From: Candidatus Cloacimonadales bacterium
GTDB taxonomy: Bacteria; Cloacimonadota; Cloacimonadia; Cloacimonadales; JAFGVF01
NCBI GenBank assembly: GCA_963677815.1
Contig: OY782499.1
Coordinates: 536,147 to 600,146 of the forward strand
Direction of reading: 5' to 3'
Length of the DNA stretch: 64,000 nt
Shown piece by piece: positions 3,376-62,195 of this stretch. Numbering within the stretch: the first letter of the stretch is position 1; the number at the start of each line of letters is the position of its first letter. A program made the position numbers and the translations under genes. The notes under the pieces were generated by a model. It did no database searches. It saw only the letters and a list, made by a program, of their open reading frames with translations, and had not been told where the DNA came from.

Positions 3376-3403
3376 TTGACAGATTTACTATTTTAGATAT
3401 AAT
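3376..3403 (+). promoter_or_regulatory. Sigma70-type promoter for fusA
   Basis: TTGACA (3376-3381), a 16-nt spacer, then TATAAT (3398-3403), 30 nt upstream of the fusA ATG. Confidence 0.7.
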
Positions 3404-3433
3404 AATTTCTAAACTTTTTTAAAGGATAATCTC

Positions 3434-5527
3434 ATGGCAACTACAGAATTAGATAAAATTAGAAATATTGGTATTATGGCTCATATAGATGCGGGTAAAA
3501 CAACTACCACTGAAAGAATCCTCTTTTATACAGGAAACATTCATAGGATGGGAGAGGTTCACGATGGTAATACTACTATGGACTGGATGGAACAGGAAAA
3601 AGAAAGAGGTATTACAATTACTTCAGCAACAACAGTTTGCCATTGGAAACACAACCAAATCAATATAATTGACACACCTGGTCATGTTGATTTTACTGCT
3701 GAAGTTGAACGTTCGCTTAGAGTTCTAGATGGTGCTGTTGCTGTATTTTGTGCTGTTGGTGGTGTTGAACCTCAATCTGAAACAGTTTGGCATCAAGCAG
3801 ACAAATACAAAGTACCAAGAATTGCCTTTATCAACAAAATGGATAGAAGTGGTGCCGACTTCGAAAATGTTGTTGAAATGATTCAAGCGAGATTATCCGA
3901 TAAAGCTTTACCTATCCAATTACCAATAGGTAGTGAAGACAGTTTTGAAGGCATTATTGATTTAATCAATATGAAAGCCATATACTTTGATTCTTCTTCC
4001 TTAGGAGCTACTTTTGAAAGCAGGGAAATTCCAGAAGACCTACAAGCTGATGCAGAAATGCATCAAGAAGCTTTGATAGACTTTATTGCAGAGTTCGATG
4101 AAGCTCTTATGGAAAAATATTTAGAAGGACAAAGTTTGACTGCTTGTGAAATTATTTCACTTATTAGAAAAGCTGTTATTTCTAATAATTTCATTCCTGT
4201 TTTATGTGGTTCTTCTCTTAAGAACAAAGGAGTTCAACCCTTATTAGATGCCATAGTAGATTTCTTGCCCTCCCCTCTTGATGTTCCAGCTTTAATTGCA
4301 ACAACAGCTGACGGATTAAAAGAAGAGACTGTTTTACCTAAATTAAATTCTAAGTTTTCTGGTTATGCTTTTAAAGTAGTAACAGATAAATTTTCAGGAA
4401 AACTTGTCTATATCAGAGTTTATTCAGGTACTCTCAAAAAAGGTGACCAGTTCATCAATGTAAATAATGGAAAGAAGGAAAGAGCTGGTAGAATTCTCCA
4501 GATGTATTCAAATAGAAAGCAAGATGTTGATGAACTTCATGCAGGTGATATTGGTGCAGTATTAGGTACAAAATTTACTATGACAGGGGAAACTATCGCA
4601 GAAAAGAACTATAATATACTTCTAGCTAAAATGGATTTCCCGGATACAGTTATTTCAATTGCTATTGAAGCAAAATCTAAATCGGATGAAGCTTCACTAA
4701 AAGATGCTCTTATCAAATTCCAAGAAGAAGACCCAACAATCAAGGTTAGAGAAGATAAAGATACTGGACAAACCCTTATTTCAGGTATGGGTGAGCTTCA
4801 TCTAGAGATTATAGTTGATAGACTCTTTAGGGAATTTAATGTTAATGCTAATGTCGGCGACCCACAAGTTGCTTATAAAGAAACTATTATTGCCCCAAAT
4901 TCGGCTCATGAGTTATTTGATAGAATGCTTGGGGATAAGAGATGTTTTGCTGATGTGAAGATTAGAGTGTCTCCATTATCAGAAGAAGAAATCTCTTCAA
5001 AACAAAAAAATATTTATGAATATAAAGCAGATGAAAAACTTCCACTTAACTTCAGACATGCAATTGAAGAATCTGCAATTAATGCTCTTAATGATGGACC
5101 AATCTTTTCTGCAAATTTAGAGAGAGTTAGGGTTGAAATCTTAGAAGCAAGCACTCTTCCTGAAGAGTCCAATGATACTGGTTTTAGGATTGCTACTTCT
5201 ATGGCAGTATCTAGAGCTATCAGAGAAACTAAATCAGCTCTTCTAGAACCTATCATGCTGGTAACTGTAATAACTCCAGAAGAAAATGTGGGAGATATTA
5301 TAGCTGACATCAACAGTAAGAGAGGTAAGGTTGAAGAGATTAGAAGTCAGAACAATAATAAACAAGAAATCTTGGCTAAGGTTCCAATGAGAGAGCTTTT
5401 TGGTTATTCAACGACAATTAGATCTATTTCCTCAGGTAGAGCCATCTATACGATGGAATATGATAGTTATCAGATAGTACCAAATAATATTAAAGAAGAA
5501 ATTATTAAAAAGATTAGAGGATATTGA
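3434..5527 (+). CDS. fusA: Translation elongation factor G (stand-alone copy, not in an rpsL-rpsG-fusA-tuf context)
   Basis: G1 [10 protein letters not shown]3 DTPGH and G4 NKMD motifs are present. The 697-aa EF-G architecture is complete. Confidence 0.95.
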
Positions 5528-15593: not shown

Positions 15594-15733
15594 CTATGGG
15601 ATGAGACCATCTTTGGTCTCAGGTGGAAGCAGGGATGCTTTCACTACTCCTAACTGGGAAAACGGGTATCTTGCCCGTACCAAGCTTTCCAAGCTTGCTT
15701 TTGTGGAAGCAGGGATGCTTCCACTCCATACAA
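15594..15733 (+). repeat. R2 motif, tandem composite A1 (two-hairpin, 15594-15650) plus A2 (three-hairpin, 15651-15733)
   Basis: Hairpins are tgagacca-tctt-tggtctca, gtggaagca-ggga-tgctttcac, acgggta-tct-tgcccgt, caagc-tttccaa-gcttg and gtggaagca-ggga-tgcttccac. The composite ends in the family tail ccactccatacaa. Confidence 0.75.
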
Positions 15734-15832: not shown

Positions 15833-17458
15833 CTAATTTAACCTACGAGCCAAGCGGAAGCCCAGATAGTTGTAGCAATTAGACGGGTAATAGTAGTTGC
15901 GATAAGCTACCCGGCAGAAGTTAGCAAAGCCGTACCAGCTACCGCCCCGATACACACGGCGATAGCCACTAGCAGGTCCCACCGGATTAGTCTGAGCATT
16001 GGAAGAATAAGATCCATACCAATCATTACACCACTCATAAACATTACCGGACATATCATATATACCTAAACCATTAGGAGCCTTAGTTCCTACATTGTGT
16101 GTCGTGGAACTGGAATTATCATAATACCAAGCCACACTATTAATATCATCAGAACCTGCATAAAGGTAATCTGGATTATAAGTCCCACCTCTGGCTGCAT
16201 ATTCCCATTCTGCTTCTGTTGGTAACCTGTAGCCATTGGCTGAGTAATCACATTCCCAAGTACTAGTATTATAGCATGGTGTTAAACCTTCTTGAATACT
16301 TCTGGCATTACAGTATTCAACTGCATCATACCAGCTTACTTGTTCCACAGGTTTATCTAAACCTGAGAAATAAGAAGGATTAGTCCCCATCACAGCTTGA
16401 TATTCAGCTTGAGTAACTTCATATTTACCTATATAAAACGATGAGAGACTTACTTGGTGGGTTGGGACTTCGTCAGAATCTCCTGTTCCTGTTGTTCTTC
16501 CCATAGTGAAAGTCCCTGCAGGTACTAAAACAAAATTATCTGGTATCGTATATATTTCCTCTTCTACAAAAGCACTTTCAAAATCTTGATAAAAGCTTTT
16601 AACTCGATAAAGGTAAATAGATGATGATTCAATATCGCTATCTTCATACTCTTGAGAATTTGCACCCAAGACTGCATACTCTTCTATCCAGTCTTCATTA
16701 TCCTTTTTCCTTGCTATTTTAAATCCATCTTCACCCTGATTATTGTCTACCCAAGACAAATAAACTGATATAAGAGATGTTTGGACTATTTGTAAATTGC
16801 TTGGTGGTGTGAACTCATTATTAACAGAAGTTTCAATAAAATCTGAGTTTACTGTTTCATAATAACTCATTACTCTGTATACATATTCAGAATTAGGCAG
16901 AATTGAATTATCTTCATACTCTAGAGAATTTTGTTCCAATACAGCATATTCTTCTATCCAGTCGTCAGTATCCTTTTTCCTTGCTATTTTAAAGCCTTCT
17001 TCCCACTGATTATTGTCTTCCCAAGTCAATCGAACTGATGTAGGAGATGTTTGGACTATTTGCAAATTTCTTGGTGGTGAGAACTCAGTATTAATAGTAG
17101 TTTCAATAAACTCTGAGCTTATCTCATCATAACATGCCTTCACCCTATACTTATACTCACTATTAGGTATGATATTGCTATCAATATACTCCGTTAAACT
17201 CTCTGTTACTGTAGCATAATCTACATTCCAATCTTCATTATCCTTTTTTCTTGCGATTTTAAATCCTTCTTCACTCAATGAGTTATCTTGCCAAGTTAAC
17301 CTACATTTATTAACAGCTATTTGTTCAATATTGAGATTAGAAGGTCCTGGTAATGTGTAAGAGGGGTCATAAGGATTCACAAAATCATCATTATCACATG
17401 ACCCTATTATTAAAGCAGTAAGTATTAATATTATTAAATTAATAAGTTTTTTTTGCAT
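15833..17458 (-). CDS. Lipoprotein with three Fn3-like repeats and a C-terminal formylglycine-generating-enzyme (SUMF1/FGE-sulfatase) domain
   Basis: Lipobox IIGSC. There are three ~90-aa repeats (LTWxDNxxxEEGFKIARKKDxxDW...YxYRV). The FGE-type C-terminus includes GNVYEWCNDWY and RVYRGGSW. I moved the start to the ATG at 17458, which has AGGAGG upstream. The track start at 17497 overlaps the upstream gene. Confidence 0.8.
   Translation of the reverse strand: MQKKLINLIILILTALIIGSCDNDDFVNPYDPSYTLPGPSNLNIEQIAVNKCRLTWQDNSLSEEGFKIARKKDNEDWNVDYATVTESLTEYIDSNIIPNSEYKYRVKACYDEISSEFIETTINTEFSPPRNLQIVQTSPTSVRLTWEDNNQWEEGFKIARKKDTDDWIEEYAVLEQNSLEYEDNSILPNSEYVYRVMSYYETVNSDFIETSVNNEFTPPSNLQIVQTSLISVYLSWVDNNQGEDGFKIARKKDNEDWIEEYAVLGANSQEYEDSDIESSSIYLYRVKSFYQDFESAFVEEEIYTIPDNFVLVPAGTFTMGRTTGTGDSDEVPTHQVSLSSFYIGKYEVTQAEYQAVMGTNPSYFSGLDKPVEQVSWYDAVEYCNARSIQEGLTPCYNTSTWECDYSANGYRLPTEAEWEYAARGGTYNPDYLYAGSDDINSVAWYYDNSSSTTHNVGTKAPNGLGIYDMSGNVYEWCNDWYGSYSSNAQTNPVGPASGYRRVYRGGSWYGFANFCRVAYRNYYYPSNCYNYLGFRLARRLN
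16560..17345 (-). repeat. Intragenic tandem repeat, 3 x 270 nt (the Fn3-like modules)
   Basis: cttctatccagtc at 16681 and 16951, and ctacattccaatc at 17221, give an exact 270-nt period. Units 2 and 3 are highly similar at the DNA level. Confidence 0.8.
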
Positions 17459-17466
17459 CTTTCCTC

Positions 17467-19455
17467 CTAATTTCCTGCAATAACAGTTCTTATCCAACTA
17501 TAGAGGGAGTAGATAGCCACTCCTGAAGCTGTATAATAGCTATAATCTCTTATATCTCGCCAAGTTTGAGTTTTATCTTTATAATCTAGGGCATCAACAG
17601 GGTTTGTAGTATTTTCATATTGGTCATAATAGGAATTAGCTATAATGTTAGAAGTTATAGCTCCTCCCAGAATTAAACTAGCTAGACCTGTAGATATCCA
17701 AGCTCTTCTTTTATGTTTATCATAATGATATTGTTTTGAACCTGCATAAGTTTCTAAGGGAATGGTAATCTCCTTGTGTTCATTTTCAGTAACGGTAAGT
17801 TTCCCTTGGTAGTCTAAGAATTGAGGGTGAGTAACCTTGAGGTCATAATCACCATAGAGGAGGGAAAGGAGGGCTGGGCTTTTATTCTCAGCTAAGTCAT
17901 TATCTAGATAAATATTAGCATCATTGACTGCTCGATTATTGTTGTATTTATCAACTGTTAAGAGGGAAACTGAGCCTAGTCTAGCTTGTGGTTCTAAGTT
18001 TATAACTTCTTCAGCTCCTACGATAAGATTAATCTCTTTACTGGCATCGAAATGTTTATCTCTTCTGCCTGTAATCTGGTATTTACCTGGCTCTAGATTG
18101 ATGTCCAAATTATCATTGCCCATTTTGACATCATTCAGATATATATCACATTGAGGAGCAGTAATTTTGAGACTTCCAAAGTTTTGAGTTAGGACATATT
18201 CTTTCTTAATAGTCTCATTAGCTGGGATTACTAATTCTTCTTCTACTGGCAACCATAAGTCTTGGGATATCTTGATAGTGTAAGTTCCTGCCATTAGTTT
18301 TGGGTTATGGTAGGGTAGTTTTCCAATCTCTTCTCCGTTTAGACTTAGTAAAGCATTTGGAGTAGAAAGACAGCTAATAGTAACATCTGAAAAATTGGGA
18401 ATTAAGTCTTGGCTTATATCCACTTCATCTCCATCTTGGATCTCAAAAGATTTTGTGACTTTTTGATAAGTATCTAATTCTAAGCTTAATTGGTGCTGTC
18501 CGCTTTCAAGCCTAGTCTCAAGCAAAGGAGTTTTACCAAGGACTTGGTCATCTAAGATTATTCTAGCACCAGGAGGATTTGACTTGATAGAAATCAATCC
18601 ATACTTAGGTCTAAGTTCATACTTTGCTAATCTCAAGGTCTGGTTTGAGGCAAGATTAAATGTTGCTGTTTCTGGATAAAACAAGTCTTTTTCTATAGTG
18701 ATAGTATATTTTCCAGGGAAATGACTTCCTTGATAAGGAGTTAAACCAACTCTTAATCCGTTAAGGCTAACGCTTGCTTCTTCAGGTTGAGATTCAATAA
18801 TAACTAAGCCAGGAGGGGAGAATTTCTCCTCACTTTCCCCCACTTCTAAAGATATATCAATATTTTTATCTGCTTGGGAAATATCAACTATTTTTGTCAG
18901 GGTCTCAAATCCTTCTTTAGCAAATTTAAACTGATAAGTGCCTTTGGGTAGTTTATATTGAGCATAATTGTTTTTAGCCTTGAAGGGTGCGTTGTTGTCA
19001 TAGGAAACCATCACATTTTCAGTATTTAATTTAAAAGTGATAGTTTTTAAGTCAGAAGTAATATCACGTAAACCTTCCCCCTTCTCATCAAGTGTCATTT
19101 TATATACTTTCCCACTCACTAGAGGATATGGGAAGTCATAACGGTGGTCAGCGAAACCATCTTTAGCAAGGATAATATACTTGGCCCTTTCTTTAAGCAC
19201 CACCCAGTAAGACCCACCTTTATTAATCTGAGATATTTTACTGTTCATGTTTTTAAAAAATACATCTTTTAATCCACAGTTAATAATTACTAGGGCTCCT
19301 AATTTATTTCGATTATCCATTTTTAAATTGTTATCAAGATCATACAAACCCATGTGTAGAGGTTCTTCTTCTAAATCCGATACTATTTCAAACTGAGCTC
19401 CAAAAAGTAGTGTCGCCTGTATAACCAATAAGATAAATATTACAAACTGTTTCAT
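17467..19455 (-). CDS. PEGA-domain repeat protein with signal peptide and C-terminal TM anchor
   Basis: Contains repeated PEGA-like units (e.g. PPGARIILDDQVLGKTP, EEASVSLNGLRVGLTP). It has an N-terminal signal peptide and a C-terminal hydrophobic segment WISTGLASLILGGAITSNIIA. Confidence 0.7.
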   Translation of the reverse strand: MKQFVIFILLVIQATLLFGAQFEIVSDLEEEPLHMGLYDLDNNLKMDNRNKLGALVIINCGLKDVFFKNMNSKISQINKGGSYWVVLKERAKYIILAKDGFADHRYDFPYPLVSGKVYKMTLDEKGEGLRDITSDLKTITFKLNTENVMVSYDNNAPFKAKNNYAQYKLPKGTYQFKFAKEGFETLTKIVDISQADKNIDISLEVGESEEKFSPPGLVIIESQPEEASVSLNGLRVGLTPYQGSHFPGKYTITIEKDLFYPETATFNLASNQTLRLAKYELRPKYGLISIKSNPPGARIILDDQVLGKTPLLETRLESGQHQLSLELDTYQKVTKSFEIQDGDEVDISQDLIPNFSDVTISCLSTPNALLSLNGEEIGKLPYHNPKLMAGTYTIKISQDLWLPVEEELVIPANETIKKEYVLTQNFGSLKITAPQCDIYLNDVKMGNDNLDINLEPGKYQITGRRDKHFDASKEINLIVGAEEVINLEPQARLGSVSLLTVDKYNNNRAVNDANIYLDNDLAENKSPALLSLLYGDYDLKVTHPQFLDYQGKLTVTENEHKEITIPLETYAGSKQYHYDKHKRRAWISTGLASLILGGAITSNIIANSYYDQYENTTNPVDALDYKDKTQTWRDIRDYSYYTASGVAIYSLYSWIRTVIAGN

Positions 19456-19561: not shown

Positions 19562-19639
19562 TTCAATCCTCAAGTTATTCTTTCCAATAGCTTATCTTTA
19601 AATAAGTCGATAAAATTTCACATCTTTACCTTTTCTTGA
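19562..19639 (+). repeat. R3 repeat, copy 1 (78 nt)
   Basis: 70 of 78 positions are identical to 39576-39653 (ttcaatcctcaagtta...atagcttatctttaaa...gtcgataa...tttaccttttcttga). Confidence 0.85.
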
Positions 19640-19768
19640 AATTTTTTCAAGATTGTTTATTGGTAACAAAGCCTCTTCTGTCGGAAGGCCTGTCTTCCCT
19701 AGCTTTAGCGAAGGGAGATGGAGATTCTCTCCGCCATCTGCGTAACCGCGGGCTGAAATCCCAATACC

Positions 19769-19897
19769 CTATGGACTGGCAGCATCTTGCTGCCAGATTA
19801 ACAGGCTTTGTAAGCCTGTTGTGGATGCAAGATGCACCCACTCCATACAATCCTTTCTCTATTTTAAATTTCTTGTTTTTATTTTTACACAGCCTGG
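19769..19897 (+). repeat. R2 motif, copy B (three-hairpin core 19769-19850 plus downstream module tttttacacagcctgg at 19883-19897)
   Basis: The sequence is ctatggactgg, then hp1 ctggcagca-tct-tgctgccag, hp2 acaggc-tttgtaa-gcctgt, hp3 gtggatgca-aga-tgcacccac, then the tail ccactccatacaa. Confidence 0.8.
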
Positions 19898-19934: not shown

Positions 19935-19990
19935 AGATTGTTACTTACTCATTAAATCATTGGCATTTTATCGAGAGAGTAACAATGAAG
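19935..19990 (+). repeat. R4 hairpin repeat, copy 1
   Basis: agattgttacttactc-attaaatcattggcattttatc-gagagagtaacaat aligns with 62114-62174 and with the reverse complement of 48603-48666. Confidence 0.65.
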
Positions 19991-20149
19991 AGACAGGAAA
20001 TAAGGCAAGTGAGTGATACTGAATCAAGCCTTACCCAAGTGAAAAAGCAACTAAAGGTGATTAAATTGCATTCTAGAGATATAATCTTGACATATCATAA
20101 GCTCTAATCTTTCTATTCAGAACATATAAATAAAATAAAGGGGCACAAA

Positions 20150-22849
20150 ATGAAAAAACATTTATTAATCCTAATAGTGTTTGTTTTTGTTGTAGGTCTA
20201 GTAGCTCAGAGTGTAATAACTCCTCAAGGTAGTGGAACAGAAACTGATCCTTATCAAGTTACTAGTTATGAAAATTTAAATTGGATAACTTCTCGAGCAG
20301 ATGATGCTCAAGTACCATTCTTAGACAGATTGTCTGCTTATTATATCCAAACTGAAAATATTGAATTCCCAGCTGAAATATCAGAATGGGATAACAATCA
20401 AGGGTTTCTTCCTATTGGTTACGGAACACTATCCGAGTCATTTCCATTCTCAGGCTATTATGATGGTCAAGGACATACACTTTCTAACCTATATATTAAT
20501 AGACCTTCTGAAGATGGAATTGCCTTATTCGGTCTTTTGATTACAGGAACTGTTATGAATCTTGGACTTGTAGATGTTGAGATAACAGGGTCATGGGGTG
20601 TTGCAGGTATTGTTAGTGAAATGGATACTAACTCTCTTGTTGAAAACTGCTTTGTAACAGGTGACCTTATTGGTGAATCATTTGTTGGTGGTATTACAGG
20701 ATATAATTTTGAATCTGAAATTAGTAATTGCTATTTCATAGGTAGCTTAGATGCACTTGAAGGTCTTGCTGGCATTGCTGGTTTTAATGATACAGCAGTT
20801 ATTACTAATTCTTATGCTGTAGCTACTGTCACTGATACAGATTACGCTGGAATCATTACTGGCTTAGCTGATGGTGGTTCTATCTCCAATACTTTTTGGG
20901 ATAATGACCTAGCTAATGGCATTGCTGGTATTTTTGAAATCTCTGAGAGCGAAATTGTTAATACTGTAGGTAAAACTACTGAAGAAATGAAAAGCCAAGC
21001 TACTTTCACAGATGCAGGTTGGGATTTTACAAGTCTATGGCAAATAAATGAAAATATTAATGCATCTTACCCATCTTTCCAGTGGCAAGAAACTAGCAAT
21101 ATTACCGACCCTACTTTACCTCCAATGAACCTAACAGCAGATGTTAATGCTTCTAATGTTGTTCTTAGCTGGGAAGAGCCATTAGATTTATCTCAAGGTG
21201 CTTGGATTACTAAAGCTGCTGAAGAAAATAATGATGGTATTGGAGTTAATGGTCCAGCAGAATTTGGTGTTGCTCATAAGTACACTGAAGAAGAATTACT
21301 TGTTTATCAAGGTTTAAATATCTCTTCAATTAAATTCTTCCCTCGTGAAGCTTCTGCTACTTATACTGTTTCAGTATGGGGTGGAGAAAGTGGTCAAGAC
21401 CTTCTTTATAGTCAAGAAGCTACTGATTTTGTTAATGAAGCTTGGAATGAACACCAATTAACTAGTCCTGTAGCTATTCCTACTTCAGGTCCTATTTATA
21501 TTGGTTACATGATAGATACTCCTGCTGGTTTCCCTGCTGGTTGTGATGCAGGTCCTGCTGTTGAAGGTGGAGACCAAATTCATTTCGTAGGTGAAGCTTG
21601 GGATGCTCTTTCAGCTGTAGCAACTCCTAATATCAACTGGAATATTCAAGCTTTTGTTTCACCTGAAGGTGGAGACAGAGCTACTACAAGTCCGCTTGTA
21701 AAAGCAAATAAGAATCTTAAGAATAATACCAATATTTCTGATTTCTTGGCTGGTAATTTAAATCCTGTAGTTACAAGTAGAGTAAGACTTGATAGAGACG
21801 TTACTGGATATAAAATCTATCGTGATAATGCAGAGATTGGTCAAATTGCTGCAGATATCTTAACTTACACTGATTCTAATCTTGATAATGCTACTTATAC
21901 ATATCATGTTACAGCTATGTATGGTGATTCAGAATCTGCAAATTCAAACAATGTTGTAGTAACTGTTAATGTATTAAATCCTGATGAAATAATTATTTCA
22001 GATTCTTTTGAAGATTATGCTGATTTTTCTATCCAATTTGGTGATTGGACTCTTGTTGATGGTGATTTAGCACCTACTTATGGCTTCAGTGGAACAACAT
22101 TCCCTAATGCTGAATCTATGTTTGCTTATATCGTATTTAATCCAGCTCAAACAACTCCTCCACTAGAAGACCAAGCTTACCAAGCTCCAGATGGAAGTAA
22201 ATATCTGGCTTCTTTCGCAGCTACAACTCCTCCAAACAATGACTGGTTAATTTCACCAGCTTTTTCCATAGGTACCAGTGGGGCAGTTTCCTTCTTAGCT
22301 AAGTCTATTACTAACCAATATGGTTTAGAGAAATTCAATGTCTTAGTATCACTTGGTTCAACAAACCCAAATGATTTCAATTCTATCTCCGGAAATGCTC
22401 CTATAGAAGCTCCGATTACTTGGACTCCTTATACTTATGACTTAACTCAGTTTGCTACTAACACAATTAGAATAGCTATCCAGTGTGTTTCAAACGATGC
22501 ATTTGTATTTATGCTTGATAATATTGTAATTACTTCTAATGGTATGGATAATGAAGATAGTGTTATTCCCGCTCTTTCAACTTCTTTAAGTAATTATCCA
22601 AATCCATTTAATCCACAAACTACTATCAATTACTCTATCCCAAAAGCTGGTAAAGTAAGCTTAGATGTTTATAATCTTGCAGGACAAAAGGTAAAAACAC
22701 TTGTAAATGATAGAAAAACTGCTGGTTCTCATAATGTAGTTTGGAATGGTAAAGACGATGCAGGTAATAATGTATCATCAGGCATCTATTTCTACAGAAT
22801 TACAAGTGGTAATGAAAGTAAAACCAACAAAATGATCTTGATGAAATAG
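20150..22849 (+). CDS. Secreted protein with GLUG-like repeats, a choice-of-anchor-J-like region and a T9SS (Por-type) C-terminal sorting domain
   Basis: Has a signal peptide and repeated G-rich motifs (GGITGYN, GLAGIAGFN). The C-terminus NYPNPFNPQTTINYSIPKAGKVSLDVYNLAGQKV...GIYFYRI is typical of T9SS/FlgD-Ig-like tails. Confidence 0.75.
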   Translation: MKKHLLILIVFVFVVGLVAQSVITPQGSGTETDPYQVTSYENLNWITSRADDAQVPFLDRLSAYYIQTENIEFPAEISEWDNNQGFLPIGYGTLSESFPFSGYYDGQGHTLSNLYINRPSEDGIALFGLLITGTVMNLGLVDVEITGSWGVAGIVSEMDTNSLVENCFVTGDLIGESFVGGITGYNFESEISNCYFIGSLDALEGLAGIAGFNDTAVITNSYAVATVTDTDYAGIITGLADGGSISNTFWDNDLANGIAGIFEISESEIVNTVGKTTEEMKSQATFTDAGWDFTSLWQINENINASYPSFQWQETSNITDPTLPPMNLTADVNASNVVLSWEEPLDLSQGAWITKAAEENNDGIGVNGPAEFGVAHKYTEEELLVYQGLNISSIKFFPREASATYTVSVWGGESGQDLLYSQEATDFVNEAWNEHQLTSPVAIPTSGPIYIGYMIDTPAGFPAGCDAGPAVEGGDQIHFVGEAWDALSAVATPNINWNIQAFVSPEGGDRATTSPLVKANKNLKNNTNISDFLAGNLNPVVTSRVRLDRDVTGYKIYRDNAEIGQIAADILTYTDSNLDNATYTYHVTAMYGDSESANSNNVVVTVNVLNPDEIIISDSFEDYADFSIQFGDWTLVDGDLAPTYGFSGTTFPNAESMFAYIVFNPAQTTPPLEDQAYQAPDGSKYLASFAATTPPNNDWLISPAFSIGTSGAVSFLAKSITNQYGLEKFNVLVSLGSTNPNDFNSISGNAPIEAPITWTPYTYDLTQFATNTIRIAIQCVSNDAFVFMLDNIVITSNGMDNEDSVIPALSTSLSNYPNPFNPQTTINYSIPKAGKVSLDVYNLAGQKVKTLVNDRKTAGSHNVVWNGKDDAGNNVSSGIYFYRITSGNESKTNKMILMK

Positions 22850-22873: not shown

Positions 22874-22903
22874 AGAGACGTATTGCATACGTCTCTTTTT
22901 TTT
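22874..22903 (+). terminator. Rho-independent terminator of the 20150-22849 gene
   Basis: The stem agagacgtat/atacgtctct is followed by T8. Confidence 0.9.
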
Positions 22904-22917
22904 GGCTCAATTTCTAC

Positions 22918-22975
22918 CTATGGACTGAGACCATCTCTGGTCTCAGGTGGAAGTAAGGATACTTCCACTCCATAC
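22918..22975 (+). repeat. R2 motif, copy C (minimal two-hairpin form)
   Basis: The sequence is ctatggact, then hp1 ctgagacca-tctc-tggtctcag, hp3 gtggaagta-agga-tacttccac, then tccatac. tatgga near the 5' end can pair with tccata at the 3' end. Confidence 0.8.
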
Positions 22976-29231: not shown

Positions 29232-29263
29232 CATATAAAAGACCATTAACAAAGTTGTTTTTG

Positions 29264-29356
29264 TCAGGTCCGGTGCAACTTTAACCCTCGAACCATGTCA
29301 GGTCAGGAATGAAGCAGCATTAAGAGGTGCTTAAAGTGTGCAACCGGTAGCCTGGC
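29264..29356 (+). ncRNA. ffs: Signal recognition particle RNA (small, 4.5S-type)
   Basis: Has the conserved domain IV core gtcaggtcaGGAAtgaagcagc (GGAA tetraloop plus the AGCAGC symmetric-loop strand). The 5' gtcaggtccgg pairs with the 3' ccggtagcctggc. A T7 run follows. Confidence 0.8.
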
Positions 29357-29493
29357 TTTTTTTATATCCAATTTTATAAAAACCCACTTATAACAAGATT
29401 ATTCCCAAACACAAGAAAAAAATATCGAAAAAAACTTGCCAAAAAAGCAATTCCTACTAAATTAGTATATAATACTAAATAAAAGGATGAAAG

Positions 29494-39575: not shown

Positions 39576-39653
39576 TTCAATCCTCAAGTTACTATTTCTA
39601 ATAGCTTATCTTTAAACATGTCGATAATATTGCACATATTTACCTTTTCTTGA
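39576..39653 (+). repeat. R3 repeat, copy 2 (78 nt)
   Basis: About 90% identical to 19562-19639. Confidence 0.85.
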
Positions 39654-40169
39654 CTTTGGTGAAAAATTATGATTAGTAACATATACCCTACATTGGATTG
39701 GATTTCCGATAAGACACATCTTTTTTCAAGTAGCAGGAGTAAATTCATAAAAATCTCGGAGAGATGCAGATATAATAGGCATCCTTCCAGGATTAATGAG
39801 GATATATTTCAATATCCGAAATTTAGACAAGAATGTATTTATAAGTCAATTTGAAAAACTTAGCTATAAACTTAAAAATGTGCATGAATTGCTTTAGTTA
39901 GCACGAGTACATGCTATCTTTCAATTGTTTAGATTGAACAGTCTCAACATATTTACCATGGATTTGTAACCAAGTTATTGATTGTATATCTATTTAAATT
40001 TAAGATCTTAAAGAAGTTCTTGACATAAATTTGCAAATTACATAACTTTGGATTATGATAATTGATGTTGAAAAATAAATTGTCAGAGTATGAAATTTTA
40101 TTAGATTAACCGGTCCAGTTTCATTATAAGCTTTTAGTTTATAAAAAATATAATTAACTAATATATTAA

Positions 40170-44731: not shown

Positions 44732-44782
44732 ATTCATAATTATTTCAGACTCTCTCCAAAGAAGAGTGGGAGCAAAATATAA

Positions 44783-45011
44783 GGCTCAAGCTCAAGTCTG
44801 GTGGAAAAAATTTAATAAAATATAAAATTTTATCATTAGTGTGATTATCCAAAGTATCCCTGAAAGGGATATAAGACCTATCCTTTCAGGATTATATCTT
44901 ATTCTGCTAAAATAATACTATCAATAGTAACTTATAATCCGTAAACTACTGTAATACAATATCTAGTGCAAAATAATGCAACATAATTTCCACCAGACTT
45001 GAACTTGAGCC
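44783..45011. repeat. 25-nt inverted-repeat pair bounding a 179-nt AT-rich segment (MITE-like or long-stem element)
   Basis: ggctcaagctcaagtctggtggaaa (44783-44807) matches the reverse complement of 44987-45011 (ggctcaagttcaagtctggtggaaa) at 24 of 25 positions. Confidence 0.75.
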
Positions 45012-45078
45012 AAATATAATAGTAAATGAAGAAGTTTATTCTCATCAGTCTTACGACGAAGATGGCGGAGAAAATCTC

Positions 45079-45206
45079 CAGACTGTGTAAAAATGAAAAT
45101 GAGATTTTCAGATGGAGCAAGGGTTGTATGGAGTGGATGCATCTTGCATCTACAACAGGCTCTGAAAGCCTGTTTAATCTGGAGGCAAGATGCCTCCAGT
45201 CCATAG
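45079..45206 (-). repeat. R2 motif, copy D (three-hairpin core 45206-45124 plus downstream module tttttacacagtctgg, read on the minus strand)
   Basis: The minus strand reads ctatggactgg, then hp1 ctggaggca-tct-tgcctccag, hp2 acaggc-tttcaga-gcctgt, hp3 gtagatgca-aga-tgcatccac, then the tail ccactccatacaa. Confidence 0.8.
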
Positions 45207-45436
45207 ATCAACCTTCCCAGTTAGGAAGCATCACTGCTGGCATTCAGACTCTGTGAAACTCTGTGTTAAGGATCTTTCTTCTTTTTAGTGCAATTAGTGT
45301 AATCCGTGGATAGACTATTTCTTTTTACACAGTCTGCTCCACCGTCCGACAGAAGAGAATAATAGGAGACCGGAGTTCCTCAGCTCTAGGCAAAGGACTT
45401 CGGACGAAGCAGACCCACTCTACTTGAAAGAAATCC

Positions 45437-48574: not shown

Positions 48575-48602
48575 GTTTCCTGAAAATTCATAAGCTTACG
48601 GT

Positions 48603-48666
48603 CTCTTGATTGTTACTCTCTCAATAAAAAGCCAATGATTTATAGAGTGATTAACAATCAAGGAAG
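48603..48666 (-). repeat. R4 hairpin repeat, copy 2 (inverted relative to copies 1 and 3)
   Basis: The reverse complement ccttgattgttaatcactctataaatcattggctttttattgagagagtaacaatcaagag aligns with 62114-62174. Confidence 0.7.
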
Positions 48667-62113: not shown

Positions 62114-62174
62114 TCCTCGATTGTTAGTCTCTCAATGAATTATTGGCTTTTTATTGAGAGACTAACAATCAAGA
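62114..62174 (+). repeat. R4 hairpin repeat, copy 3 (between convergent radC and htrA-like genes)
   Basis: An 18-bp perfect stem gattgttagtctctcaat/attgagagactaacaatc with loop gaattattggcttttt. Confidence 0.8.
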
Positions 62175-62195
62175 CACTATAATGATTAATATTAA

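Follow-up and report, generated by a model that had tools for sequence, protein, structure and literature searches.

The window considered here, a stretch of 64 kb from a Cloacimonadales genome, encodes enzymes of lysine fermentation (KamA, KamD/E) as well as several large proteins with Por_Secre_tail/FlgD_ig C-termini, that is, T9SS cargo; database matches assign it to Cloacimonadota. The spacers between its genes hold five copies of a repeat composed of two or three hairpins, referred to below as R2. These five instances (A1, A2, B, C, and D) had been put forward in a first-pass annotation of the same DNA, and the reading of the sequence bears all of them out at the positions given in Table 1. 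All the copies are intergenic and are distributed over four loci of the window. Moreover, their G+C content of 46–50%, against 32% for the window, agrees with the earlier description of the motif as richer in G+C than its surroundings.

Copies of R2 in the window and their neighbours

Copies A1 and A2 are located after the stop of a gene with an FGE-sulfatase domain and before the start of kamD, both genes being on the minus strand. In this spacer, A1 comes first in a tandem dimer and consists of hairpin 1 (gagacc/ggtctc) followed by hairpin 3, and the covariance model described below matches it at 15595–15650 with 33.4 bits (E 4.6e-6). Copy A2 opens with the linker module cctaactggga at the place where TATGGA is expected, continues with hairpin 1 (acgggta/tgcccgt, including a T.G pair) and hairpin 2 (caagc/gcttg), and ends with an intact hairpin 3 and 3' TCCATAC (model match 15655–15730, 42.3 bits, E 2.7e-8). 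Copy B occupies the divergent spacer between a PEGA-domain gene (17467–19455, minus strand) and a T9SS cargo gene (20150–22849, plus strand), where it scores 77.7 bits (E 4e-17) and, on the opposite strand, 57.8 bits. Copy C follows closely on the intrinsic terminator (22874–22896) of the T9SS cargo gene, with 78 nt left up to the next gene (61.1 bits, E 5.6e-13); its 57-nt stretch TATGGA...CCATAC, at 22919–22975 of the window, is identical in the related locus L027, where the flanks differ. Finally, copy D is found where kamA and a T9SS cargo gene converge, in the spacer that separates them, and has the highest score (81.2 bits, E 5.3e-18).

Table 1. Positions in the window of the R2 copies and of the elements adjoining them
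Feature	Position	Strand	Description
Copy A1	15594–15650	+	Two hairpins; 5' TATGGG; degenerate 3' end
Copy A2	15651–15733	+	Three hairpins; without 5' TATGGA
Family-2 unit, intact	19672–19745	+	cctcttctgtcggaagg ... ggagattctctccgccatct; directly upstream of B
Copy B	19769–19850	+	Complete three-hairpin unit
3' extension	19851–19897	+	Common to B, D, and L015; ends in TTTTTACACAGCCTGG
Copy C	22918–22975	+	Complete two-hairpin unit
258-bp carrier of D	45079–45336	−	Perfect 15-nt terminal inverted repeats CAGACTGTGTAAAAA
Copy D	45124–45206	−	Complete three-hairpin unit; hairpin 3 begins GTAG

A covariance model, suggested earlier as a check on these copies, was built from 40 family members and run over the window with filters off. 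It recovers exactly the five claimed sites, with scores of 33–81 bits and E-values from 4.6e-6 to 5.3e-18, and no further site in the 64 kb falls below E = 2. In addition, the sequence CCACTCCATAC occurs five times in the window when up to one mismatch is allowed, against 0.48 occurrences expected. Four of the five are exact and belong to A2, B, C, and D; the remaining one, a site with one mismatch at 21374–21384, is outside R2 and unrelated to it. Across the copies, the predicted folds are more stable than those of shuffled sequences, with z-values between −4.2 (A1) and −9.0.

Anatomy of the unit and covariation of its stems

Hairpins 1 and 3 are related imperfect palindromes of 21–22 nt with 9-bp stems, placed in opposite orientation and carrying the feet CTGG...CCAG and GT(G/A)G...CCAC, respectively. 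Hairpin 1, with the layout ctgg-NNNN-ca-tctt-tg-NNNN-ccag, resembles the reverse complement of hairpin 3 (gtgg-NNNN-ca-tc(c)t-tg-NNNN-ccac), and an optional third palindrome, hairpin 2, may stand between the two. The unit is framed by TATGGA/TCCATA and by a further imperfect stem of 8 bp, gcaag(g)gg / cc(a)cttgc, an extension of the closing stem that is seen in the arrays and is followed there by a linker. The ends of R2, TATGGA(C/G)TGG, are inverted with agreement at 10 of 11 positions. Both the quasi-palindromic nature of R2 itself and its further extension on either side had been missed by the earlier reading, and the end coordinate 19897 given at that time is the end of a separate 3' extension (Table 1), not that of copy B. 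The end of the linker, cctgctaactgaag, is equal to a module of the window, 'cctaactgggaag', which is present at 15649, 19915, and 45225, and the linker module of A2 matches the closing part of the 139-nt unit that is repeated in tandem in the related JAEKNW assembly. In view of this layout of unit plus linker in the arrays, A1–A2 is therefore a degenerate tandem dimer.

The stem variants listed in the first-pass annotation are right for hairpin 1, both for agac/gtct (A1 and C), gcag/ctgc (B), and gagg/cctc (D), and for cggg/cccg with its T.G closing pair in A2. They are equally right for hairpin 2, which reads caggc/gcctg in B and D versus caagc/gcttg in A2. For hairpin 3, the variants aagca/tgctt, aagta/tactt, and atgca/tgcat are present as described, but the stem of B (atgca/tgcac) is mispaired and contains an A.C. 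Of 40 copies of the family, 39 have GTGG at the start of hairpin 3 and D has GTAG, and at least seven different, fully complementary stems are found in hairpin 1. A central G/G mismatch of hairpin 1 is common to 20 copies, nearly all of them from JAEKNW.

When 40 distinct copies taken from several genomes are aligned, standard pairs fill 93.8% of the stem cells, with values of 92–98% in hairpins 1 and 3, and only 34–40% of the cells pair when the partners are slid as a control. Changes on both sides of a pair occur in seven pairs, four of them in hairpin 1, one in hairpin 2, and two in hairpin 3; in hairpin 1, as many as four pair types are seen at 11-27, 12-26, 13-25, and 14-24. The covariation score amounts to 0.130, versus 0.061 in shuffled alignments, none of which reaches 0.130 in 500 shuffles, and 0.02–0.055 with slid partners. 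Thus, the covariation check proposed for a widened alignment finds significant compensatory changes, and the idea of a fold under selection, with free stem sequence, preserved complementarity, and conserved loops, is upheld on the 40 copies.

Relatives, tandem arrays and the transposase genes beside them

Real copies of R2 are found only in assemblies of Cloacimonadota/Cloacimonadales, namely JAEKNW01, the chromosome OY829950.1, OY782831.1/CAXXQH01, and CAXXJV01. This result comes from a scan of a genome collection, with one genome per species and an exact pattern, that returned 26 loci; the matches from unrelated phyla (L004, L010, L012, L014, and L023) proved to be due to chance on inspection and were dropped. 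A scan of metagenomes gave two real copies among 18 loci, and the one match among viral contigs was a chance occurrence in G+C-rich coding DNA. Relaxing the patterns and applying the model brought the number of distinct copies collected from the related loci to about 60.

Many of these copies stand in head-to-tail arrays. In JAEKNW, a three-hairpin unit and its 34-nt linker recur with a period of 139 nt, in at least five units in L013 and about four in L002. In L007, on OY829950.1, a two-hairpin unit recurs with a period of 68 nt (5.1 and 3.2 copies according to Tandem Repeats Finder), and an array with a period of ~116 nt is present in L028. A CRISPR-like nature of these arrays was considered and rejected, since they are tandem repeats of whole units without unique spacers. 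Many of the JAEKNW copies are located at contig ends.

The window is syntenic with JAEKNW contigs, the amino acid identity being 93% for kamD/E, 84% for the SNF2 helicase, and 76% for the PEGA-domain protein, and orthologous spacers can thereby be compared. In the spacer between kamE and the SNF2 gene, L017 contains ~165 nt of R2 and the window contains none, the flanks being otherwise alignable. Upstream of kamD, the window carries the A1–A2 dimer, JAEKNW carries an array of ~650 nt (pieced together from L011 and L017, the 3' end of the former overlapping the 5' end of the latter), and L032 carries a RAYT gene that is flanked by arrays on either side. Copy B, upstream of the PEGA-domain gene of the window, has as its counterpart a four-unit array in L007, at the same relative position and with the same polarity.

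In L007, an ORF of 183 aa (3397–3948 of that locus) has R2 on either side, with an array of more than five units on one flank and a pair of units on the other. The ORF matches the Pfam model Y1_Tnp with 43 bits (cut-off 23), and its best NCBIfam model is REP_Tyr_transpos (REP-associated tyrosine transposase), with 65.2 bits, below the curated cut-off of 80; the IS200 model gives 26.8 bits, well short of these 65.2 bits. Its best match in the PDB is the E. coli TnpArep structure 4ER8, a weak match (E 0.014) whose alignment spans the HUH motif (pnHvHvl) and the Tyr motif (nYirengvk) of the ORF. Databases contain 480 homologues of this RAYT, with several per Cloacimonadales chromosome, and many of them bear the JGI label 'REP element-mobilizing transposase RayT'.

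Gene contexts were compared for five of these homologues (P0002, P0003, P0010, P0021, and P0005). Both P0003 (L028, 70% identity) and P0002 (L032, 76% identity) have R2 arrays on their two sides. The R2-flanked transposases of L007, L028, and L032, three related genomes, are 183–189 aa long, and in three of three cases the R2 units on both flanks share one polarity, which is opposite to that of the RAYT gene. The 64-kb window, searched by tblastn with the RAYT, contains no such gene; the linkage between R2 and RAYT is seen in relatives and not inside the window. A REP/BIME-like system had been named from the outset as the main alternative to an RNA, and it is supported by a Y1/HUH gene of RAYT type flanked by R2 in three relatives. 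A linked RAYT was also part of what had been set down beforehand as evidence against an RNA, and such a gene is found in the relatives but not within the window itself.

The other homologues stand beside other repeats. P0010 (L029, 60% identity) is flanked by a second family, termed family 2, of the form cctcttctgtcggacggtGGAGATTCTCTCCGCC..., and the same family is found on the flanks of P0021 (L031, 57% identity), which lies on the same chromosome as L007; OY829950.1 carries two RAYTs and two repeat families. P0005 (L030, 67% identity) is flanked by ~2 kb of a third repeat, 175 nt in length and with four hairpins. The R2 model has no match in L029, L030, or L031, and among the contexts compared R2 is found only with RAYTs of the L007 clade (P0002 and P0003). 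R2 accompanies this clade only and other repeats accompany the paralogues; thus, to every RAYT clade belongs a repeat family of its own, and this clade-specific pairing of repeat and RAYT is the defining 'REPtron' picture.

Family 2, which flanks the RAYT paralogues of L029 and L031, is also represented in the window, both by the intact unit upstream of B and by a split copy around D. The latter is interrupted by the carrier of D (Table 1), with GAG on both sides, and removal of the carrier and one GAG leaves an intact family-2 unit that matches those of L031 and L029. Since the target is restored in this way, D was carried along by an insertion with terminal inverted repeats at its ends, and at least this copy reached its site passively, within the 258-bp insertion. 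The sequence TTTTTACACAGCCTGG represents the terminal inverted repeat on the right-hand side of the carrier, and the left end is absent at B; L015 has the right-hand carrier end, as B does, and L022 has the left-hand one. HUH transposition makes no target duplication, and the 3-bp duplication and terminal inverted repeats of the D carrier, judged from the sequence, appear to point to a DDE-type route.

Interpretation and comparison with known systems

R2 is very probably a REP-type system of repetitive extragenic palindromes of Cloacimonadota, built as an inverted doublet (REPIN/BIME-like) and associated with a RAYT. As such, it adds an example to a known kind of selfish or domesticated DNA and does not represent a new RNA or a new class of molecule. 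The model for recognition and cleavage of hairpins comes from the biochemistry of E. coli TnpArep/REP and of IS200/IS605 TnpA. Following this model, the R2 hairpins would extrude from single-stranded DNA, e.g., the lagging-strand template, and a cognate Y1/HUH transposase of RAYT/TnpArep type would read the shape of the hairpin together with the conserved bases of foot, loop, and junction, after which it would cut and rejoin the DNA. The tandem arrays may then grow by slippage or unequal exchange. A transposase that reads shape plus fixed bases, as proposed, would explain why the stems are free yet complementary, why loops and ends are fixed, and why the copies are spread over intergenic sites. 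By analogy, we infer that RAYT may bind and cleave R2 hairpins on single-stranded DNA. REPs also have side effects on their hosts, including transcript stabilisation, termination, and protein binding, and effects of R2 at the level of the host, e.g., mRNA stabilisation, are possible.

It is very unlikely that R2 represents small structured RNAs or a cis-acting RNA element, the arrays being multi-copy RNA genes from a processed precursor, even though the strong predicted folds (z from −4 to −9), the real compensatory changes next to conserved loops, and the G.U pairs on the plus strand of A1 and A2 would suit such a reading. The Rfam scan of the window detects only the SRP RNA (29262–29360) and nothing on the motif, either at the gathering threshold or at E up to 10, consistent with the initial impression that R2 belongs to no named RNA family. 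Both strands fold about equally well, and all the copies also match the model on the opposite strand, with 19–58 bits. Selection at the RNA level predicts a strong excess of G.U over A.C on the motif strand. However, the stem mismatches in the 40-sequence alignment comprise seven G.T and seven A.C, with A.C on the motif strand in B and D, so that neither strand is favoured as it would be in an RNA. The orientation of the copies relative to neighbouring genes varies among A, B, C, and D, copy C stands past a terminator, and no promoter or terminator signal is consistent around the copies, the counts being no higher than in shuffled sequence. The presence or absence of R2 at orthologous sites and the position of its units beside RAYT genes argue in the same direction. 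Thus, selection on a fold stands as first claimed, and the evidence favours the REP/RAYT alternative rather than a novel functional RNA. The tRNA/tmRNA scan found none, and a tRNA-like cloverleaf was also rejected: ARAGORN gives no match, the two-hairpin form is short of an arm, and the structure is strand-symmetric. It is likewise highly improbable that the units, and above all the long arrays next to RAYT genes, are transcribed and serve as cofactors or decoys, in the form of RNA or single-stranded DNA, that would program or restrain the Y1 transposase. If they did, their role would be guide- or regulator-like, analogous to that of TnpB/IscB or IS110 RNAs, and their cloverleaf-like, loop-conserved architecture would be more than a passive substrate of the transposase.

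Two further alternatives keep R2 at the level of DNA. One of them, a miniature inverted-repeat element moved by a DDE transposase through its TATGGA(C/G)TGG ends, with the proximity of RAYT being incidental, is very unlikely. It draws on the inversion of these ends, on a modular make-up with an optional hairpin 2 that recalls the A-B(n)-C organization of BOX, and on the larger unit with 15-nt terminal repeats in which D and B lie, including the 3-bp target duplication of the D carrier. Nevertheless, all three RAYTs of the closest clade are flanked by R2 on both sides in the same polarity, and the other clades have repeats of their own, a pattern that makes coincidence hard to accept. Moreover, long head-to-tail arrays are untypical of such elements, and no DDE transposase is seen beside any copy. 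A variant of this alternative invokes a possible flanking TA duplication, as in a Correia- or BOX-like element; such a TA is inseparable from the conserved ends. The other alternative takes R2 as an architectural or regulatory DNA site of the host that is no longer mobile, a two-fold symmetric platform to which a nucleoid protein or gyrase would bind, as has been proposed for BIMEs. Its two-fold symmetry, its conserved loop and junction bases, and the persistence of clusters upstream of kamD and of the PEGA-domain gene across species would agree with this role. Such a role is compatible with the REP/RAYT reading, not exclusive of it, and as a separate explanation it is extremely improbable: no binding protein was identified, and the copy content differs widely at shared sites, from a dimer to a 650-nt array and to a RAYT with arrays.

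The REP/RAYT reading gains from comparison, since R2 has most of the defining features of REP/BIME–RAYT and REPIN–RAYT systems. The combination of REP/BIME with TnpArep (RAYT), to which the structure 4ER8 belongs, was reportedly named 'REPtron' by Ton-Hoang in 2012. As in the REP/BIME–TnpArep systems of E. coli and other proteobacteria, R2 consists of short imperfect intergenic palindromes, two types of which alternate with intervening motifs (cf. Y-S-Z2-s) and form tandem clusters, and a single small Y1/HUH gene with conserved HUH and Tyr motifs is flanked by its own repeats. However, R2 belongs to the phylum Cloacimonadota and has no sequence similarity to proteobacterial REPs, its feet are GTGG/CTGG and not GTAG, and it possesses a closing stem of its own (TATGGA/TCCATA plus 8 bp) and an optional third palindrome in a cloverleaf-like arrangement. 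It also differs in the long arrays that flank its RAYT, with three to five or more units, and ~2 kb in the related family of L030. Furthermore, the R2-linked RAYT matches the NCBIfam RAYT model only below its cut-off, and five copies of R2 are present in the 64-kb window, whereas REPs of enterobacteria and pseudomonads typically number hundreds.

In Pseudomonas fluorescens, REPINs are inverted doublets of two REPs (Bertels and Rainey 2011, PMC3116915), and R2 resembles them in the several RAYT paralogues per genome, each with its own repeat family, and in the long life of clusters at their loci (PMC3116915). In contrast, the REPs of a REPIN pair into one long hairpin (PMC3116915), and each arm of R2 forms a hairpin of its own. 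A long-hairpin fold competes in B and D, where the minimum-energy structure pairs hairpin 1 with hairpin 3, but within A1 and within C the two arms are not complementary to each other. According to the main text of a survey of GTAG-tagged palindromes (Di Nocera 2013, PMC3733652), these have stems of 6–9 bp and a GTAG that may degenerate to GTGG, and REPs form tail-to-tail dimers, with the tags inside, that are reiterated in tandem together with flanking segments. R2 is similar to this superfamily as described there in its 6–9-bp stems, the GTGG tag of its hairpin 3, and its tandem-reiterated dimers. The CTGG tag of hairpin 1, read on the opposite strand, is not among the variants that the main text lists for the superfamily, and that text does not mention a family from Cloacimonadota (PMC3733652). 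BOX elements of Streptococcus pneumoniae and Correia elements of Neisseria share with R2 a modular construction, an optional middle part, inverted ends, a stable structure, and an intergenic location, but they have neither a linked Y1 transposase nor long head-to-tail arrays around one, and R2 has both.

Cloacimonadota are mostly known from anaerobic digesters and metagenome-assembled genomes, and a literature search for RAYT or REP elements in this phylum gave nothing relevant. To our knowledge, work on REP/RAYT systems has been confined almost entirely to Proteobacteria. R2 would provide a clear case in Cloacimonadota, in which several paralogous RAYTs are each accompanied by their own composite multi-hairpin repeat. 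The natural covariation of the stems probably marks the bases that the transposase reads, namely those of feet, loops, and junctions, as opposed to those that it ignores in the interior of the stems. Repeats of this type break assemblies and might be mistaken in annotation for non-coding RNAs or CRISPR-like arrays, and they are potential markers for the typing of strains.

The carrier of copy D and its insertion target

Copy D of the multi-hairpin intergenic repeat R2 is carried by a 258-bp element whose insertion target was a family-2 repeat, that is, a member of the second palindromic family (Table). This carrier looks like a miniature inverted-repeat element, and it was possibly moved by a putative DDE transposase. 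Its right end is found again after R2 copy B (19882-19896) and in the related locus L015, and its left end in L022. In related genomes, family 2 flanks a different RAYT (REP-associated tyrosine transposase) paralogue (loci L029 and L031), and its stems also covary, with ggagagtctctcc versus ggacagcttgtcc, the latter in L031.

The convergent spacer of copy D also holds a 31-nt inverted-repeat pair (44777-44807 and 44987-45017, 90% complementary, separated by 179 nt), which may be another small inverted-repeat element.

Coordinates of repeats and RNA in the window and in locus L030
Feature	Location	Strand	Remarks
Family-2 repeat	window 19672-19745	+	cctcttctgtcggacgg ... GGAGATTCTCTCCGCCATCT ...
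Split family-2 copy	window 45337-45360 and 45040-45078	-	
258-bp element	window 45079-45336		perfect 15-nt terminal inverted repeats (CAGACTGTGTAAAAA), GAG at either side
Recurring non-coding stretch, pair 1	window 19562-19654 vs 39576-39668		
Recurring non-coding stretch, set 2	window 19936-19999 vs 48596-48664 vs 62114-62182		
Bacterial small SRP RNA	window 29262-29360	+	Rfam RF00169, 75.5 bits
Third repeat family	L030 2600-2920 and 3630-5500		both sides of RAYT homologue P0005

Repeats and genes around other RAYT loci

The third repeat family, surrounding the RAYT of L030, consists of 175-nt units in tandem, about 2 kb in total, each containing four different short palindromes (gcatgcaccttgcatgc, cttgcatacttgcaag, ctccaaaaatctttggag and gcgaacaagttgttcgc). 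On chromosome OY829950.1, two overlapping genes (L031 1004-2459) lie directly upstream of the second RAYT locus, one with an HRDC domain and the other for a reverse transcriptase (RVT_1); this pair may represent a retron- or DGR-like module.

R2 arrays at contig ends

Most R2 copies in the related JAEKNW assembly lie less than about 250 nt from a contig end (contigs L005, L011, L013, L016, L019, L020, L024, L025 and L026), which indicates that the assembly was broken by repeat arrays. Moreover, the 3' end of L011 overlaps the 5' end of L017, making manual contig joining possible.

Other repeats and RNA in the window

A coding tandem repeat of 270 nt (16639-17295; 2.3 copies according to Tandem Repeats Finder, 78-90% identity) is located within the FGE-sulfatase-domain gene 15833-17497, and probably codes for the fibronectin type III domains that are repeated in the protein. 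The SRP RNA is the sole Rfam family detected within the window. Finally, conserved non-coding stretches of 64-93 nt with 84-86% identity recur in and near the spacer of copy B and at three other window sites. Of those around copy B, the stretch at 19936-19999 is upstream of a T9SS cargo gene (20150-22849). These stretches probably represent common promoter or leader sequences.
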